64,000 bases of DNA from assembly GCA_963514005.1 (NCBI GenBank), contig OY740794.1:60884001-60948000 (forward strand), given 5' to 3'. The stretch comes from Raja brachyura. Its lineage: Eukaryota. This document shows positions 12,650-30,902 of this stretch, piece after piece (position 1 is the stretch's first letter; every line of letters starts with the position of its first letter). Position numbers and translations under genes: made by a program. The notes beneath the pieces were generated by a model. That model did not search any database and was not told the origin of the DNA. It saw only the letters and a program-made list of their open reading frames with translations.

Positions 12650-12852
12650 TGTAGATGGTTTTGCATGCAACCAATAACATAGTTACCTCAGTACCATTAA
12701 CCCCGCCTAGTTAACATCAATCATAATGCCTTCCCCTTCCTGGATACGGTTCACTAGAAGAATGTAGCCAGTATTTGAGGATGTATGTAATACCTTGTGC
12801 TATCATTAAAATGTGTTGAACACTTTTAGAGTTTGTAAATTGCTTATTTACA
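12650..12852 (+). repeat. 5' LTR (203 bp)
   Basis: TGTAGATGG...TTATTTACA. Identical to the 3' LTR except T12727 versus C17238. ATTAAA at 12805-12810 is a likely poly(A) signal. Confidence 0.98.
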
Positions 12853-12867
12853 TGGTGTCGGAGCTGG
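12853..12867 (+). promoter_or_regulatory. Primer-binding site (probably tRNA-Leu)
   Basis: TGGTGTCGGAGCTGG directly after the LTR. TGG complements the tRNA CCA end, and the site resembles the tRNA-Leu PBS TGGTGTCAG(G/A)AGTGG. Confidence 0.8.
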
Positions 12868-12946
12868 AAGATACTTGCGCCTACCTGTCCATCGGGTTTT
12901 ATTTCTTTTATTTGATTTGTGCCTTTTGTGCTTTATCTCTCTGACC

Positions 12947-15900
12947 ATGGCATCCTCGTGCAGAAAGCCCGCGCAGCTTGTCTTTGATGCTGATATTTCT
13001 GAGCGCTGGGCTACGTTTGAAATTGATTTCACCCACTTTGTCAACGTCGCTCACCGCAATGATCCTGACTCCCTCAAAGCCTCCCTCCTACTTAACCTTG
13101 TCGGACCTGATGCCATGAAGAGAGCCAGAACTTTCGTCTATGCTCCAGCGGTCCTGAACGACAACAACGTGGTGGTTACCCCTGCAGAATCTGCCAGTGA
13201 CCCTGCTTGCCTGCTACGTAAGTTCAGGGAGATTTGTGACTTGCCCTCGAACCGCATTCTAGAGAGGGCACGGTTCTTTACAAGGAGACAGCTGCCGGAG
13301 GAACCTGTTGAATGTTTTATTGCCGATTTGCGTTATCTCGCCCAGCGGTGCCGTTTCGGTGACATGACAGACCAGCTCACTAGAGACATTTTAGTAACTG
13401 GCATGCGTGACCAGAAGCTGCGATGTGAGCTTCTTAGGGATCCGGATCTAACGTTAGAAATAGCCATGCATGCCTGCAGATTGTCTGAGGTCGTTGTATT
13501 GCCAGATGATCACCGGGACTTGGGAGATAAGTCTGTTCACCAGGCTGGATTTAGTAGAGCCCTGCCTCAGAGGGGAAACAATGCTTTTCTGCCGCGTGCC
13601 AACCCTGGTCCTGCTGATGTGCCCCCAAAAAGGTGCCCTAACTGTAACTACATGCACCACAGACGGTCGACGTGCCCTGCCTATGGCAAGGCTTGTAATT
13701 TTTGTAACAAACTGAATCATTTCGTTTCTGCCTGCCGCTTATTCCGTTCTCGTGGGAGACAGGTACAGATTTCCAGACCCAGTCTAAACATGCTTAAACA
13801 ATCTGATAGCTGTTCCAACCCACAGCCCGATGTTGCTGAATCCTATGATGCAGATCCAATTAATTCTCCCGAGGATTCGAATGTGTTTACCCTCCTCCAG
13901 GCACCTGGCCAACGTCTTGATCCCTCCGTGTCTGTGACTGTCAACAATGTAACCTTCCTTGCGAAGTTAGATACTGGGGCAAAGGTCAATGTTTTGTCAA
14001 TAAATCTTTTCAACAAGATAAGGACTAATGAGGCCTTGGTCGCTGACAATGCTACTCTACACGCCTATGGTGGAGAAATTCTCAGGCCTGTGGGGAGGGC
14101 CACTTTAACTTGCAGGCTACAGAAGGCCACGAGAAACTTGATTTTTTATGTTTTGAACTCTGACTGTGTTACCCTGCTGGGAAACCGTGCGTGCCAAGAT
14201 CTTGGCCTGGTGTCCTTCGACCACACGGTCCACAAAGTGCAACTGTCATTTAACCCGATTGCAGAATACCAGGACCTGTTCAACGATGACCTGGGAAAGT
14301 TACCACTGACATACCATATTTCCATTGACCCAAATGTACAACCCGTGGTCCGCGCACCTCACAGGGTGTCCCACGCCATGAAAGACAGGGTCGAGGCGAT
14401 GCTTAACAACATGGTCGACAAGGGGGTGCTAGAAGCGGTCAGCGAGCCCACCGATTGGGTCTCCACCATGGTTGCCACGATAAAGAAAGACAAGAATGAA
14501 ATACGTGTGTGTATCAACCCCAAGGACTTAAACCTTGTCATCAGGCAACCACACTACCCCATGCGGTCTGTTGAGGACGTGGCGGCTCAGGTCGGGCAAG
14601 CCACCGTCTTTTCGGTCCTAGACGCTAAGAACTCGTTCTGGCAGATCCCGTTGGACAAAGCATCTTCCGACCTGACAACCTTCGCCACACCATTCGGCAG
14701 ATTCAAATTCCTGCGAATGCCATTCGGCATCAATTCCGCTAGTGAGGTGTTCCAGCGAACGATGGAGCAGATATTCTCGGGCCTGCCATGTGCCATCATC
14801 GTGGATGACATCTTAGTCTATGGAAAGGACATTGCCGAACATGACCGGAACCTCCGCCGCGTCCTGGATCGGGCGCGAAAGGCCAACCTGAAGCTGAACC
14901 CAAAGAAGTGCCGGTTTCGTGTCTCAGAAGTCACGTATGTTGGACACGTTTTCACCTCTAACGGACTAAAACCCGACCCTTTGAAGGCAGCGGCCATCTC
15001 TGAGATGGCAGCCCCCACCGACGTGCCAGGTCTACAACGTTTCTTGGGCATGGTGAACTACCTTGGGAAGTTTGTACCACATCTCAGTGAGCTGAGTGCT
15101 CCCCTGCGGCAGCTGACAAAAAAGGATATCGCCTGGGTCTGGCTCCCACAGCACCAGCAGGCGTTTGACTGTCTCAAGTCGAAACTGATTAACACTCTGA
15201 CGTTGCGATTTTTTGATGCGAGTCGCCCCATCACCGTCACATGTGACGCTTCTAAGTTCGGCCTGGGCGCGGCATGCCTCCAATCTGTCGATGGATCGTT
15301 ACATCCTGTCTCCTATGCCTCCCGCACCATGACGGACACCGAGCAGCGGTACGCTCAGATCGAGAAGGAGCTGCTTGCGGTGGTGTTTGCCTGCTCCAAG
15401 TTCAGAGACTTCCTGTTTGGCAGCAGATTTACAGTCGAAACCGACCACCAGCCACTGGTGACAATCCTGAACAAGCCGATTCATGCTGCCCCTGCCAGGC
15501 TGCAGCGTATGATGCTGCAGCTCCAGCGCTTTGATTTCGACATCGTCTACAAGAAAGGCACCGAGATGCACATCGCGGACACGTTATCGCGCGCCCCGCG
15601 GGCCTCCTGTGCTCGCCACCCCTACGAAACAGAGGACTTGCTCGTACTGGGCGTCAATTTTATTCCCACCAAGCAGCTGCAGCTTTTGGCCGAGCACACC
15701 GCTGCCGATCCAGTTTTGCAACGGCTTGCGTCTGTGATTAAATCAGGGTGGCCAACAAAGCGCTCCGCTGCACCGCCTGAAACACAGCCCTTCTTCCTGG
15801 TCCGTGACGAACTGGTGCTCCAGAATGGCGTTATCGTTAAGGGACATAAAGTGGTGGTCCCGTCCTCCCTGTTCGATTCTTACTACTGCGCAGCCCACAG

Positions 15901-17098
15901 CGGACACCCCGGGGTCGATGCAACACTCGCCCACGCTCAGTGCCAATTCTACTGGCCTGGAATGGCCAAATATATTCGAGACCGTGTTTCTGCCTGCTCC
16001 ACGTGCAACAGTCTTGCTCCACATCAGCAGCGACAGCCCCTGCTGCAACAGCCCGCTCCTGCCTTGGCCTGGTCCTCGCTGGCTGCCGACATCTTCGAGT
16101 GGCGTGGTAACCACTACCTTGTCCTGGTCGACTCGTACTCAAACTGGTTCGAGGTGGATTTGCTGACATCCCTCACGTCGGAGATGGTGATCCGGAAGCT
16201 GCGGAAACACTTCTCCACGTTTGGGTCCCCTGTCAGGCTGCAGACTGACAATGGCAGGCAGTTTACCAGCCGTGAGTTCAAAAGTTTTGCTGACAAATGG
16301 AATTTTGTGCATTTCACCAGCAGCCCGGAGTACCCACAGAGCAACGGCCTTGCTGAACGGGCCGTCCGCAGCGCCAAGCTTCTGATGGAACAAGCGAGAC
16401 TGTCTAACTCTGATTTGTATTTGGATCTCCTGAACCTCAGGAATGTTTCCAGAGATCCGGCCATGGGGTCCCCTGCTCAGCGTCTGATGTCCAGAACAAC
16501 CAGATCTACCATCCCGATTGCCCAGCGCCAGCTGAAACCTCGGGTGCTGGAGCCTGCCTCTGTGCAGAGGCGCATTCAAGAGAAACATGACAGCCAGCGG
16601 CGTTCCCACGATCGGTCGTGCAGACCGCTCGATCCTCTGTTGCCTGGACAGGTTGTTCGATTGCAAACCGCCAGTGGTCACTCCCGTCTGGCTACTGTGG
16701 TTGGGGTGGCCGACTCACCTCGTTCGTATCTGGTCGACTATGAGGGAACCATCTACCGTAGAAGCCGACAACACCTGCTTGCGGTTAATAAGCCGAAGCC
16801 GCAGGCCCCGGGCCCCTATGCCCCGCCGCTCTCATACCAGCCGCCGGCTCCTGTCCCAGCCAGCGTTCCCTGCATGCCTCGGTCCCCATTTCGAGCGCCC
16901 GGTTCCCCTCTGCGCGGGTCACCTGTTGGCGGTCGCGGTTCTCCCTCTCCTGTTCCTCCAACCCCACCGCCCTTCCCTGGTTCCCCTGCTGTCTCAGGTC
17001 CCCCTGTTTTTTCTGCTCCTCCGGGGGAAGGGGGAGGCATCCGTACGCGCTCGGGCCGGATCAGCAAGCCACCTGTTCGTTATGGCGATTCTGTTTAA
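12947..17098 (+). CDS. Gag-Pol polyprotein (Gag with 2 zinc knuckles, PR, RT, RNase H, integrase), 1383 aa
   Basis: Kozak ACCATGG at 12947. Knuckles CPNCNYMH...C and CNFCNKLNHFVSAC; protease LDTGA; RT LDAKNSFWQ, RMPFG, IIVDDIL; RNase H CDASKFGLGA, EKELLA, TDHQPL; integrase H-H-C-C plus ADIF, TDNG, SNGLAER. The PR-RT-RH-IN order is Gypsy. Confidence 0.97.
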   Translation: MASSCRKPAQLVFDADISERWATFEIDFTHFVNVAHRNDPDSLKASLLLNLVGPDAMKRARTFVYAPAVLNDNNVVVTPAESASDPACLLRKFREICDLPSNRILERARFFTRRQLPEEPVECFIADLRYLAQRCRFGDMTDQLTRDILVTGMRDQKLRCELLRDPDLTLEIAMHACRLSEVVVLPDDHRDLGDKSVHQAGFSRALPQRGNNAFLPRANPGPADVPPKRCPNCNYMHHRRSTCPAYGKACNFCNKLNHFVSACRLFRSRGRQVQISRPSLNMLKQSDSCSNPQPDVAESYDADPINSPEDSNVFTLLQAPGQRLDPSVSVTVNNVTFLAKLDTGAKVNVLSINLFNKIRTNEALVADNATLHAYGGEILRPVGRATLTCRLQKATRNLIFYVLNSDCVTLLGNRACQDLGLVSFDHTVHKVQLSFNPIAEYQDLFNDDLGKLPLTYHISIDPNVQPVVRAPHRVSHAMKDRVEAMLNNMVDKGVLEAVSEPTDWVSTMVATIKKDKNEIRVCINPKDLNLVIRQPHYPMRSVEDVAAQVGQATVFSVLDAKNSFWQIPLDKASSDLTTFATPFGRFKFLRMPFGINSASEVFQRTMEQIFSGLPCAIIVDDILVYGKDIAEHDRNLRRVLDRARKANLKLNPKKCRFRVSEVTYVGHVFTSNGLKPDPLKAAAISEMAAPTDVPGLQRFLGMVNYLGKFVPHLSELSAPLRQLTKKDIAWVWLPQHQQAFDCLKSKLINTLTLRFFDASRPITVTCDASKFGLGAACLQSVDGSLHPVSYASRTMTDTEQRYAQIEKELLAVVFACSKFRDFLFGSRFTVETDHQPLVTILNKPIHAAPARLQRMMLQLQRFDFDIVYKKGTEMHIADTLSRAPRASCARHPYETEDLLVLGVNFIPTKQLQLLAEHTAADPVLQRLASVIKSGWPTKRSAAPPETQPFFLVRDELVLQNGVIVKGHKVVVPSSLFDSYYCAAHSGHPGVDATLAHAQCQFYWPGMAKYIRDRVSACSTCNSLAPHQQRQPLLQQPAPALAWSSLAADIFEWRGNHYLVLVDSYSNWFEVDLLTSLTSEMVIRKLRKHFSTFGSPVRLQTDNGRQFTSREFKSFADKWNFVHFTSSPEYPQSNGLAERAVRSAKLLMEQARLSNSDLYLDLLNLRNVSRDPAMGSPAQRLMSRTTRSTIPIAQRQLKPRVLEPASVQRRIQEKHDSQRRSHDRSCRPLDPLLPGQVVRLQTASGHSRLATVVGVADSPRSYLVDYEGTIYRRSRQHLLAVNKPKPQAPGPYAPPLSYQPPAPVPASVPCMPRSPFRAPGSPLRGSPVGGRGSPSPVPPTPPPFPGSPAVSGPPVFSAPPGEGGGIRTRSGRISKPPVRYGDSV

Positions 17099-17149
17099 TT
17101 CTGTTTAATTCTGTTGTAGTGACAACGGTCTGTTTCTTTTAAATTTTCT

Positions 17150-17160
17150 AAGGGGAAGGA
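17150..17160 (+). promoter_or_regulatory. Polypurine tract
   Basis: AAGGGGAAGGA abuts the 3' LTR. Confidence 0.93.
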
Positions 17161-17363
17161 TGTAGATGGTTTTGCATGCAACCAATAACATAGTTACCTC
17201 AGTACCATTAACCCCGCCTAGTTAACATCAATCATAACGCCTTCCCCTTCCTGGATACGGTTCACTAGAAGAATGTAGCCAGTATTTGAGGATGTATGTA
17301 ATACCTTGTGCTATCATTAAAATGTGTTGAACACTTTTAGAGTTTGTAAATTGCTTATTTACA
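17161..17363 (+). repeat. 3' LTR (203 bp)
   Basis: Direct repeat of 12650-12852, followed by the TSD CAAGT. Confidence 0.98.
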
Positions 17364-25900: not shown

Positions 25901-27746
25901 ATAAAGGTGACGCTGAGCAGGCAACAATAGTGATCATTTTAATAGATATAACAGTGACTCAAATTCTATTCAAAACCATTAAATATAATACAAAGGGCTT
26001 AATTCATTGTTGAACCCCTTTCTGTTTCCAAGAGTCCATTTCATAATTTCTTCCCAGTAATACTGCTTTTCATAGAACAACAGTTTTCCATCTGTTTCTG
26101 GTTGTGTACCAATGTCTTCCAAAGGGTTTATTTCTTTTCATTTCTTACATTTGTATCAACTCTCCATTTTTTAAAAAAGAACAACCAACTCCTTCGTATG
26201 TTTTCTTGGCCTTACATCTACATAAAAGTAAAAGCTGAAAGAAGCTAAAGATGTAAGATTAAAATGCAGACTGCTTCTCTTCTCAGCCAACAATATTCGA
26301 ATCCTGACATTACAGATGAAAGGACACAAACTGATTCTGCACACTCATGTTTCTTTAAATTTTATCAAAAAGAAGAAAATAACAAATTCCAACATCAATT
26401 GTGAGCAACTAAATTATGATTTACAACTTAAAAATCTAAAAATAATTTTGGTTAATTAAGAGCATCTTGGGAATATAATTAACCTGATTAGAGTTTTGGA
26501 TACAGAAGTACTATATACATCTGAAATAAATATTATTCCCAAAATAGACATCCCATGCTTGCAAACGTTTGTGAAATTATAAATGAACGTTTCAATCTCT
26601 AAAGGGTCTATGTTTTAATTTCTACATTTGGTTTTAAAACTCATTGGTTGTGACAGAGACCATTTTGAGGGATGGACCATATTTAGATATAGCGAGTGAG
26701 CAAATATTGGAAACCTTGTTTTTGTTTGTATGGCCATTTAAAAGTCCAGTCCTATATTAAGCAAGCTGTTTTAACCAAATGTGTGCACTGATTATAGATT
26801 GTGGATCATGGGTCAAAGCAATATCAGCTAATTTAAACCCCACATGGCAAAAGAGTTTGTGATTCTGGAGCAGGTGGAAGGGTGAGAAATGTGAAACGGG
26901 TGGGGCAGAGACCAAGATTATGTTTGTTGTACCAATAAAAAGAATTCTTATCCTCAGTTCTCAATTATTATATATTTGAGGACTGAAATGGAAAATTAGA
27001 AGGACATTGAAACATTGAAAAATCTCTCTTCAGGAGATAAGCCAGTTGAATGAATCCATAAGAAAGCTGGTTGTGTACAATTTGCATAAATTATCTTAGT
27101 TGAGGTGATTTCATTTGAATGTTTTCGAAAGCAAATTATACTGTATTTGGTTAGGTTGTGCCTTTGGATAAATTTCATCTTTTTCACCCCTTGAATTTCT
27201 TCCTATTTATATTTGTTCTCAATATCTTTAATGTATCTAATCTCAAAGTACGACATGTCATGACATTTTCAATATCAGTTATATTTATCCACAGATTTAG
27301 TCTTGCTATTTTTTAGGAAGCTCTCATGGGTAATATTTCTATGAACTATATTTACCAGTACAAAACATATTTTACTAATGATATGATAGAACTTTACATA
27401 ATTTCTACCTTTATCCAGGGCTGCCAACTCTCACGCTTTGAGCGTGAGAATCACGCATGTTAACAAATTCTCACGCTGATCAGAAATTTCTCACGCTCAA
27501 AGTGGTGAGAAATTGTGTGATCAACGAAAATTTCAAAACTTAGATAAACTGCATGGTCCGCGGGTGTTGTAGAGCCGGGGCTGAGGGAGGGATGGAAGCA
27601 CAAGCAGCAGCGGAGACAAATGCGGACGGGGATCCGGGGCTGGCAAGTGTTTGCCGGGGTTGGCGAGTGTTTGCCAGGGATAGATGCCGGGAGCGGGGCT
27701 GGCGAGTGTTTGCCGGGCTGGCGAGTCGCTCACTGCAGCTCCGGCC

Positions 27747-27884
27747 ATGGAGCAGCCTCAGTGCAAGGCGTCGGAAGCATTGCACCGCTGCCGTGAGAGT
27801 CTCTATGCCAAATTCGCCCAGGTGACCGGTATGGATCAGGCTGCGGCTCGGTGCATCCTGGAAGACAACCAGTGGCTGCTGGAA
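27747..27884 (+). pseudogene. TDP2: Orphan exon 1 of a TDP2-like gene (N-terminal UBA-like domain, 46 codons)
   Basis: GCCATGG start. RESLYAKFAQVTGMDQAAARCILEDNQWLLE resembles, from memory, human TDP2 RRLLCVEFASVASCDAAVAQCFLAENDWEME. Ends at a phase-0 donor GAA|GTAAGT. No downstream TDP2 exons were recognised. Confidence 0.72.
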
Positions 27885-27994
27885 GTAAGTACCAAGCACT
27901 GGGTAGAAACAGTGGAAGATAGTGGACTTCAAATGGGGATGGTTGGAGAAAGCATCCTGCTTGCCTGCTCGATTTTCACTTACTGTAACTGCAG

Positions 27995-28327
27995 GAAAAA
28001 AGTTCCCGATGTTGGGGGAGTTCTGAACCAGGGGTCACAGTTTAGGAATAAAGGGGGGCCAGTTAGGAATGAGATGAGGACAAACTTTCTTCACGCAGAG
28101 AGTTGTGAATCTGTGGAATTCTCTGCCACAGAAGGCAGTGCAGACCAATTCACTGGATGTTTTCAAGAGAGAGTTACATTTAGTTTTTGGGGCTAACGAA
28201 AAGGGATATGGGGAAAAAACAGGAAAGAGGTACTGATTTTGGATGAATAGCCATGATCATATTGAATGGCAGTGCTGGCTCGAAGGGCCAATGGCCTATT
28301 CCTGCACCTATTTTCTATGTTTCTATG
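27995..28327 (+). mobile_element. CR1 (HER1-type) 3' fragment inside the composite element
   Basis: TTCCCGATGTTGGGGGAG...CTGTGGAATTCTCTGCCACAGAAGG...(TTTCTATG)n tail. Confidence 0.85.
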
Positions 28328-29917
28328 CTTGAGTATACGGCAATAAAACTCGATCACTTGATTTTGAAGCATCCATGCATGGTGGAGATATAATGTAGTC
28401 ATAGAGTGATACAGTGTGAAAACAGGCCCACACCCGCCAGCATCTTTTGGTTCATACCTCCAAACCTGTCCTATCCATGTATCAGTTTAACTGTTTCTTA
28501 AATGTTGGGATGGTCCCTGCCTCAACTACCTCCTCTGGCAGCTTGTTCCTTGTGGATAAAGTTACCCCTTAAAAAGTTACCTCTTAGAAATACTTCATAC
28601 AAAAAACATTGAAATCTTACTTCTACAATGCACTGAAAAATGATTTTAATACATCAAATTTCAAAAAGTTCCCACCCTGGGAGGGGGGACACCCTTCCTC
28701 CACACCCTCTCCCCACTTGGTTGCTCCACTCCCTCACCGGGTACCCCAAAGGCCAGTGATCAGTGATCGCTCAGCCTTCCCACTTTTGAAAACGCTCCGC
28801 AGCCTCTGGTTCAGACGGAGAACACTGCCAGATGTGAGCGGGGAACTGAGGCCAGTTGTCCGTGATGTCTGGATCCCAATGCTCAGCGCTTCATGTTTCG
28901 GAGTTGTTATTGATTTGTAATTACCCTAATTTGTACTTAGTTGACAAAACCTTAATTTATTAATCCGGAATATCCAGGGGGATGGGATAAGTGTAATATT
29001 AAATGACATGCAAGGTGTCAGGCTGTCTGTCACAACATACAGCCCTGATAATCCATTATTTCCTTCAGTTAAATATTGGGAAGGTAGCACTATTGTCATT
29101 TGCCACTGAATTATTATGTTTGTTTACCTCACTATTTCAAACCCACCCCAATTCCTTTGGCAGGTTGAATAGAAATGTCCCCAATCTCGTTGTTTAATTA
29201 ATTGAACACGTAGATGAACATCCTCAAGGAGTGTAGTCAGATGGAAACTGATTCAGATGCGATATTTAAGAGCTTGTTCAAAGAAAGGACATATTTTAAA
29301 GGAATGACAGAGATACTTGCAGGGGAATGTGTGAGCAGATTATTATTTGTCTTTAGTTTTAGCTTGAACCAGGTCATCTGAAGATTCAAAGTTTAATATA
29401 TTAATTGTGCTGATACTGACCCCAACAAACCATGTAATGAATATCATCCATTCTGGAGATTTTACTTTTATGATGCCATTTAAACTTCACTTGGATTTCA
29501 ATCACTTCAATGTAAAAGTAATTGGGAATGGGGAGCATTGGAACAAAAATTTGCCCTCGGTACATATTAACTGTAATGTAATAATTTATGCATGTTGGTA
29601 CGTGCAATCAAAACAAAGATCTTTTTATCATTGTTGTGTTATGAATACCACAGAAAATATTATGTACTTTCAAGATCACAGTTAATAGAATAATATTGCT
29701 TAAATATATAGTTATTGGACTTTGCATTTCAGAAAAGACCCAGCTGAGAGGAAGACAGCAAAATACTGAAAATATTGGGGGTGAAAATGACTTCAGGACA
29801 GTTTGTTATGAAAATGAAAGAAATTGTATCAGAATACCTATACAGTTGAGCGAGTTCAATTTTATGGATGGAAATTGTGTTCAACCAATTGATTACTTCT
29901 TTGACAAAGTAACTAGC

Positions 29918-30090
29918 ATGTTAGAGAGAGTTAGATAGAGCTCTAGGGGCTTGTGGAGTCAAGGGATATGGGGAGAAGGCAGGCACGGGTTATTGATAGT
30001 GGACGATCAGCCATGATCAAAATGAATGGCAGTGCTGGCTCGAAGGGCCGAATGGCCTCCTCCTGCACCTATTTTCTATGTTTCTATGTT
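29918..30090 (+). mobile_element. CR1 3' UTR fragment
   Basis: GAGAGTTAGATAGAGCTC...CCTGCACCTATTTTCTATGTTTCTATG. Confidence 0.85.
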
Positions 30091-30902
30091 AGATAACAAG
30101 GAAGTCAATTAATGTAGCAAATTTTGTTATCCATAATTTGGTCTGTGAAGTGCCCCAAAATGGATTACTGCATTAGATAAGCACCTGTGGACTTGAACGT
30201 AATAGGTTAAGTCCAGGGGGTCAGATAAGGGGCTTTATGTGTGGGCCAGATATATTGTCAGTGCAAAGGGGCTAGGAGCAAGACCAAGTTTGTATCCAGA
30301 GTCAAGGTCTGGAATAGTACTATGTGTGCAGTCAAAGATGGGACCAGGGGTGTGTTCAGCACTGGGAACCTAAGCAGGTAAGCAGCTATGATCAGCGTAG
30401 AATAGGGGGCCAGGTGTAAGGCTGGACTCAGGGACAGGAATGAGAGAAGGTATGCAACTGGAGTCAGGGCCAGGAGTAGTACCAGGTGTGCAGTGAGACC
30501 CAGGTTGGTCAACATGGGCCAAGTGCTTGATTATATTCTGATTTCCACACATGAACACACTAACATCATTCATGTGCTGCACCTGTTGATTAGAGCCTGG
30601 GCTCTACTGTGGAATGTAATTAGGAATGTAATTTACTCTAATTCATAGCTAATCCAATTTAAAGCATATATATTGCATTCAAGTGCAAGTTAAAAGACTC
30701 GCTACAGTATGCACCATATTTCAAGCTGAAAAATGCAAAAGTTCCGTACCAATGGGAGGGGGGACACCCTCCTCTGCCTTCATCGTCCTTCTCCCTCACC
30801 TGGATCCATATCTTCCCCCTCCACCCCCAGTCCCATTGCAGGGGGTGGAGGGGGAAATATGTACAATTTATTTCCCCCAACAGATGCTACTTGATCCTCT
30901 GA

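Follow-up and report, generated by a model that had tools for sequence, protein, structure and literature searches.

In plants, fragments of host genes are multiplied by Pack-MULEs and other Pack-TYPE transposons, non-autonomous TIR elements whose cargo is often 5′ and GC-rich and which carry many different fragments at few copies each (PMC8277862). For animals, a survey of Pack-TIRs in 100 genomes counted 4 multicopy cases among 281–370 elements (Tan et al. 2021, PMC8277862); in the portion of that survey available to us the multicopy examples have 3–5 copies and the median cargo is 224 bp, and its supplements may list higher copy numbers. A far larger family is described from the bat Myotis lucifugus, in which the rolling-circle Helitron HelibatN3 bears NUBPL's promoter, 5′UTR, exon 1 and part of intron 1 at ~1,000 copies (Thomas et al. 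2014, PMC4224331). Among the hAT transposons, the hAT5 and hAT6 groups are defined by 5- and 6-bp target duplications and lie within the Blackjack-containing lineage (PMC12730594).

We analysed a stretch of 64,000 nucleotides of the skate Raja brachyura (the window), which holds one copy of a transposon family that carries the start of the TDP2 gene. Like the surveyed Pack-TIRs, for example Pack-hAT-N8_XT with its CAPSL 5′UTR, this family combines a TIR element with a GC-rich host fragment, a distant parent and distinct target duplications, but it differs from the survey's examples in having at least 509 copies, a cargo of ~1 kb with a coding exon and its donor, and two nested elements with different duplication lengths (PMC8277862). 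With HelibatN3 it shares a 5′ gene end with a splice donor, a copy number on the order of a thousand and a vertebrate host, 5′ pieces also being those that amplify most in the Helitron system; in contrast to that system, its elements are of the cut-and-paste type, with TIRs and target duplications, and a chimeric transcript is reported for HelibatN3, whereas those of the TDP2 family are hypothetical (PMC4224331). Unlike plant Pack-MULEs, it has a vertebrate host, non-Mutator ends and a single fragment at more than 1,000 copies rather than many fragments at few copies (PMC8277862).

By every feature tested, the TDP2 family is a Pack-TIR, of Helitron-like scale and with a nested history. Its host fragment is flanked by both TIRs (in a free inner copy, L337, and in complete outer copies; the window copy has lost two of the four ends), its parent is identifiable as the TDP2 gene and is not linked to the element, and it has transposed repeatedly, with exact and distinct duplications at 22 of 40 outer and 10 of 14 free inner copies. 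We consider it very probable that the window contains a truncated copy of a nested non-autonomous cut-and-paste element, in which the TDP2 5′ end is a neutrally decaying passenger and which was likely mobilised in trans by hAT5/hAT6-like transposases. Among the papers listed by a literature search, none dealt with TDP2 capture by a transposon or with TIR elements that capture genes in skates; the family may be catalogued in Repbase, Dfam or subscription journals, which lay outside the scope of that search.

The TDP2 segment and its parent gene

The initial annotation of the window had described an orphan TDP2 first exon within a transposon-like cassette. The ATG (in GGCCATGG), the 46 open codons and the GTAAGT donor were confirmed, with the ATG lying 331 bp inside an outer transposon end that carries subterminal repeats (Table 1). 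The resemblance of the encoded peptide to the N-terminus of TDP2, which the annotation had pointed out, was borne out by a Pfam match to UBA_4 (E 6e-5, above the cut-off), by a match to the solved TDP2 UBA chain 6q00_B, and by 39 identical residues out of 54 (72%) in the TDP2 protein of the little skate (Leucoraja; P0004), the closest proteins being Leucoraja and Rhinoraja entries. When the 64-kb window was searched with full TDP2 (tblastn), the exon 1 piece was the sole match, which agrees with the annotation's remark that no nuclease-domain exons were recognised in the following 36 kb.

The annotation had also proposed locating the true TDP2 gene, and this gene was found intact on a contig other than that of the window (G000:C2:140,267,827-140,287,557), where its seven exons have canonical splice sites and together form an open frame of 392 codons. 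A genome search with P0004 placed the nuclease exons there singly (at 140.27 Mb), each of the six non-first exons being found once in the genome, and the first 60 residues of P0004 gave 1,905 first-look candidates, 113 of which were scored. In 40 kb at the gene there was no exact outer TIR, and beside its exon 1 there was no likeness to the ends of either the inner or the outer element described below.

Exon 1 of the gene ends, in phase 0, at the residue equivalent to the end of the window exon, as the annotation had stated. Colinearity of the window segment with the gene begins ~117 bp ahead of the second in-frame ATG and reaches into intron 1, with 89% identity over ~204 bp of exon end and intron start; the exon of the segment has a 14-codon deletion relative to the gene and comprises UBA helices 1–2 only, and its GTAAGT donor arose as a change within the transposon family. 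Because the donor, the start of the intron and two intronic repeat remnants are all colinear with the gene, the window piece is a DNA-level copy of TDP2 exon 1 and the start of intron 1 and not a retrocopy, as the annotation had maintained on account of the retained donor.

The GC-rich sequence upstream of the ATG, which had been taken for a 5′UTR, is indeed present, but is probably not purely untranslated: since both the gene and the Rhinoraja model (P0005) have an in-frame ATG, the gene's likely start codon, 26 codons upstream of the second one, this sequence is likely to be partly coding in the gene. In the window, a further ATG, at 27684, is in frame with the exon.

At residue 33, the little-skate protein P0004 has a Q (in 'FAQVT'), as do the younger transposon copies, and the Raja gene, the older transposon copies and Rhinoraja have an L at this position. 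The Q in P0004 may have arisen in parallel, may have been passed to the gene from a transposon copy by gene conversion, or may stem from a gene model that was joined wrongly.

Table 1. Features of the TDP2-carrying transposon copy, in coordinates of the window
Feature	Position	Strand	Remarks
Left end of outer element: 13-bp TIR CAGGGCTGCCAAC and TCTCACGC subterminal repeats	27416..27498	+	non-autonomous
Relic of inner left TIR, fused to TDP2 5′ sequence by a family-wide deletion	27552..27563	+	
Segment captured from TDP2: 5′ region, exon 1 and the first part of intron 1 (~630 bp in gene coordinates)	27556..28569	+	colinear with G000:C2:140,267,789-140,268,717
Counterpart of the gene's likely first ATG	27592..27594	+	out of frame with the UBA exon; 77-codon frame, then stop
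Part of TDP2 exon 1 from second in-frame ATG	27747..27884	+	46 open codons
Predicted splice donor GTAAGT, phase 0	27885..27890	+	gene has GTAGGT
LINE 3′ tail (presumably CR1-like), at the same place in TDP2 intron 1 and captured along with the intron	27990..28327	+	
Second intronic repeat remnant common to TDP2 intron 1; captured segment ends here	28402..28569	+	
Right part of inner element, with right TIR (28796-28808)	28570..28808	+	5-bp target duplications when free
GTTCA, right copy of inner target duplication	28809..28813	+	uninterrupted site at two other loci
Internal non-coding cargo of outer element	28814..30774	+	90–93% identical to family majority
LINE 3′ tail, later insertion into the window copy	29926..30085	+	8-bp duplication ATGTTAGA at flanks

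Outer and inner elements and their copies

The left end of the outer element, which is common to two sister families with other cargo, is represented by 1,196 exact 21-mers in the genome. In a first genome search, nearly all of the 40 places scored (of 3,620 candidates) began at the base matching 27416. The majority sequence of 15 complete copies measures 3,371 bp, has CAGGGCTGCCAAC TIRs and contains no long coding frame; the window matches it over 27416-30774 at 90–93% identity, the final ~96 bp with the right TIR being gone, so that the window copy lacks both the inner left end and the outer right end. An apparent right TIR at 29047 was rejected as internal sequence. The initial annotation had paired the left end at 27416 with an end at 28808, a pairing that had to be abandoned, as 28808 is the right end of the inner element and the outer element reaches 30774.

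Target duplications of the outer element were scored in 40 complete copies, after 4 of the 44 loci with both ends had been dropped for showing only an internal second left end. They were exact in 22 copies (13 of 6 bp, 6 of 7 bp, 2 of 8 bp and 1 of 9 bp), had one mismatch in 9 more and were not seen in the other 9, chance matches amounting to 8 among 1,560 mismatched flank pairs. The dispersed copies with common ends and distinct target duplications that the annotation had envisaged were found in this way, but the duplications are mostly 6–7 bp long for the outer element and 5 bp for the inner element, and not 8 bp.

An exact 33-mer spanning the exon end and GT occurs 510 times in the genome (reversed control, 0), one occurrence being the gene itself, which leaves 509 copies. 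As this 33-mer is present in 22 of 73 end-sampled copies, we estimate ~1,700 copies (95% range 1,200–2,550), a rough figure since subfamilies differ. Thirty consecutive outer left ends on one contig comprised 13 with TDP2, 10 of the second family, 6 of the third, and 1 that was interrupted. Most of the spreading was due to the outer element, which took the composite to at least 509 and an estimated ~1,700 places. With the parent gene found, the intron retained and hundreds of dispersed copies, the Pack-type capture by a TIR element that had been suspected from the window alone is well supported.

The second family with outer ends (L124:127-2293 on the minus strand; L183-L202) is ~2.2 kb long, non-autonomous and flanked by 6–8-bp duplications, and its cargo is a different GC-rich sequence with SINE/LINE remnants, which may be another captured gene start. 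The third family (L245, L248, L259, L266, L268, L272) joins the outer left end to yet other GC-rich cargo, often behind two tandem left ends. Two tandem outer left ends also occur in a younger TDP2-carrying subfamily (L051, L077, L082, L113, L128, L139 and others), with a truncated exon and a GA-rich tract between them; the outermost end is the one with which the target duplications pair. The window copy clusters with this subfamily and looks like a collapse of the two ends. Other public data sets contain transposon-type read-through frames (P0002, P0003), and public runs X1, X2, X5 and X20 contain sequence that spans the entire element. The transposon family is likely shared with related species.

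An older subfamily (40 places scored of 883 candidates) has ~345 bp more at the left, including a full inner left end, CATGGGCCGCGGA, which is the inverted match of the end at window position 28808, and 50 more bases of TDP2 upstream sequence than the window subfamily. The inner right end was found with a different flank at 46 places in a pattern search of the genome, and exact 5-bp duplications flank 10 of the 14 free inner copies with both ends in view (8 of 12, plus L337 and L343). One of these, L337, is a free inner copy of 1,965 bp with the TDP2 piece and both TIRs, and other free copies have up to ~90 bp more intron and the gene's longer exon. The inner TIR element has transposed independently with its TDP2 piece. 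In a tree of 32 rows, from which L289, L296 and L334 were left out for their short matches, the topology was star-like, with the window copy in a younger group and with 4 of 5 free inner copies placed beside the gene at weak support (93/74).

Within the outer element, the inner copy occupies a GTTCA site, the left GTTCA copy of which overlaps the inner terminal CA, so that 2 bp are missing there. Because neither of the two loci at which this site was found empty has outer ends, it is more likely that the outer element took up a segment already holding the inner copy than that it received an inner insertion. The flanking segment of the inner element is also found, without interruption, in other repeats (L373, L374; also L375, L376), which indicates that the cargo of the outer element is itself borrowed. 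In the order of events that the copies indicate, the inner element captured the 5′ region, exon 1 and the start of intron 1 of TDP2, probably through template switching or gap repair at the GC-rich gene start, and then transposed by itself. The composite, with the inner copy at the GTTCA site, was subsequently amplified inside the outer element; among later subfamilies, there was loss of the left end of the inner element or addition of another left end to the outer one.

Candidate transposase families

Judged by their ends and duplication lengths only, both elements appear to be hAT5/hAT6-like, the fit of the duplication lengths being good for the inner element and partial for the outer one. 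They resemble these groups in their short CA...TG TIRs, their subterminal repeats, and their 5-bp inner (10 of 10 exact cases) and mostly 6-bp outer (13 of 22, the rest 7–9 bp) duplications, and in this comparison of ends and duplications the outer element differs from hAT6 in that its duplications range from 6 to 9 bp, many of them being 7 bp long (PMC12730594). The subterminal repeats that the annotation had called hAT-like are present. The canonical 8-bp duplication class of hAT is not seen, as only 2 of 22 exact outer duplications are 8 bp long and those of the inner element are 5 bp.

Potential autonomous partners were examined at 52 hAT and 12 P loci by matching of ends and by scans for TIRs with adjoining duplications. 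None with matching ends was present among the 52 loci examined following a search for the hAT dimerisation domain (PF05699; 150 scored, 1,667 candidates), nor among the 12 loci examined of 29 found with the P-type RNase H domain (PF21787). The complete hAT and P elements among the examined loci, including the one complete P element, had 8-bp duplications and other TIRs. Nothing at these 12 loci of 29 supports a P element as the mobiliser. Two P elements contain a short copy of the outer left end and a third has a sister-family copy next to it, which we read as insertions rather than as traces of the mobiliser.

Two further observations concern these loci. At L227:3363-8073 there is a complete P-type element (17-bp TIR, 8-bp duplication) within which 19 bp of the outer left end are repeated ahead of a GA-rich tract, as also seen at L231. 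A hAT family of ~3 kb (L237:2122-5213, L238:2127-5219, L364:2243-5202) has intact-looking frames of 740–790 codons, TIRs and 8-bp duplications, and was likely active recently.

Fate of the captured exon

Selection on the exon was assessed in 89 copies that had not been picked by protein likeness, with the expectation derived from the mutational spectrum of the intron and upstream sequence. Among non-CpG changes, 245 were nonsynonymous, where 257.5 were expected, and 93 were synonymous, where 103.1 were expected (ratio 1.05, p 0.72), and the corrected ratio over all sites was 1.04. The ATG was damaged 8 times (9.1 expected) and the GT 10 times (6.0 expected). The exon copies decay neutrally, with a corrected dN/dS of about 1.0 and with the frame, ATG and donor not spared. 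An uncorrected pN/pS of 0.57 was rejected as a sign of selection once the CpG bias, 5 linker codons rich in indels, 16 variants shared by subfamilies and the 16 copies picked by protein likeness had been removed; taken together with stop codons that are fewer than expected (16 observed, 26 expected), it leaves room for weak constraint on some copies. The ATG, frame and GT are all kept in 51 of 105 copies, a sample that includes both the window copy and the 16 protein-picked ones.

The annotation had further suggested that the exon could act as a portable ubiquitin/SUMO-binding module. A study of the TDP2 UBA reports that helices 1 and 3 contact ubiquitin, that human F62 in helix 3 is needed, and that this domain does not bind SUMO (PMC5137425). 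Within the 45-aa UBA chain, the match to the window exon extends over positions 3-34 and that to full TDP2 over 3-43, and helix 3 (ALNSYF; the INSYF segment) lies in TDP2 exon 2. As helix 3 is missing, no folded ubiquitin-binding UBA is expected from the exon, which, with the lack of SUMO binding by TDP2 and the neutral decay of the copies, speaks against such a module.

RNA reads (one raw poly(A) run and three contig sets, at 85% likeness) covered the exon to a depth of ~5–15 per strand, on both strands and no higher than the rest of the element; only 289 of 30,022 were 99% alike to the window copy, the runs mostly differing from it by over 5%. No joint at the donor was present among the 15 read joints listed of 337, the joint and loose-end tables being filled by LINE reads. 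A search for a host gene in the window yielded nothing from 24 splice-site candidates, and Pfam found no domain in 149 of its 162 non-repeat frames, a comparison that short or non-Pfam exons would escape. Elsewhere in the window, at 12650-17363, lies a complete LTR retrotransposon, a recent insertion, which has 203-bp LTRs (99.5% identical) and encodes RT, RNase H and integrase domains in one open frame of ~1,400 codons. As part of the explanation that we favour, the exon in the window copy very probably has no function.

A wider scenario would have a relay of gene-capturing cut-and-paste transposons seed ~1,700 start exons with donors in skates, of which some would by now initiate chimeric transcripts or have returned variants to TDP2 by gene conversion, the latter part being raised by the Q in little-skate TDP2 that marks the younger transposon copies; we regard this as unlikely. 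Alternatively, some of the ~1,700 copies, possibly including the window copy, could act as alternative first exons or promoters that splice into host genes and give rise to a partial TDP2 N-terminus or to chimeric transcripts. In many copies the frame is still open and the GT intact (counted from the second ATG in 15 of 41, from the first in 8 of 41), the region has remained rich in CpG (o/e 0.76 in the window copy, 0.92 in the gene), stop codons are in deficit, and there is precedent in that at least 30% of Pack-TIRs are transcribed as chimeras (PMC8277862) and that the NUBPL piece of the bat Helitron supplies a splice site to SGSM3 (PMC4224331). This alternative is nevertheless distinctly unlikely in view of the family-wide neutral decay, the missing helix 3 and a promoter that is likely incomplete (~220 bp upstream of the second ATG were captured, ~120 bp of which are kept in the window subfamily). 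In addition, searches for longer proteins with this N-terminus yielded nothing beyond TDP2 and two read-through frames (3 of 3 hits; 2 of 17 candidates), which is weak evidence.

Helitrons by definition have no TIRs and produce no target duplication. Spread of the TDP2 piece by a Helitron, for which the high-copy capture of 5′ gene ends in bats is a known vertebrate precedent (PMC4224331), or by retrotransposition, to which the LINE tail inside the element might point, is highly improbable, as both elements end sharply at common positions with TIRs and 5–9-bp target duplications, the copy still has its intron, and the LINE tail was inherited from the gene's own intron. From its strong ATG context, open frame and donor, the locus might be taken for TDP2 itself or for a segmental duplicate of the gene. 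This is scarcely credible, given that the six other exons occur once each on another contig and never in the window, and that on either side the resemblance to the gene gives way to transposon sequence.

The copies of the TDP2 piece are no evidence for a new protein module, and they can confuse TDP2 annotation and read mapping in skates. The family shows that cut-and-paste transposons in a vertebrate can multiply a captured coding exon to more than 1,000 copies. Such a scale has so far been reported for Helitrons of bats and for elements of plants; the 100-genome survey of animal Pack-TIRs does not report it in the portion available to us (PMC8277862). The nested history of the family, of which dated subfamilies, empty sites and free inner copies have all survived, is a good natural test of how capture and relay proceed and of whether GC-rich 5′ gene ends favour amplification.
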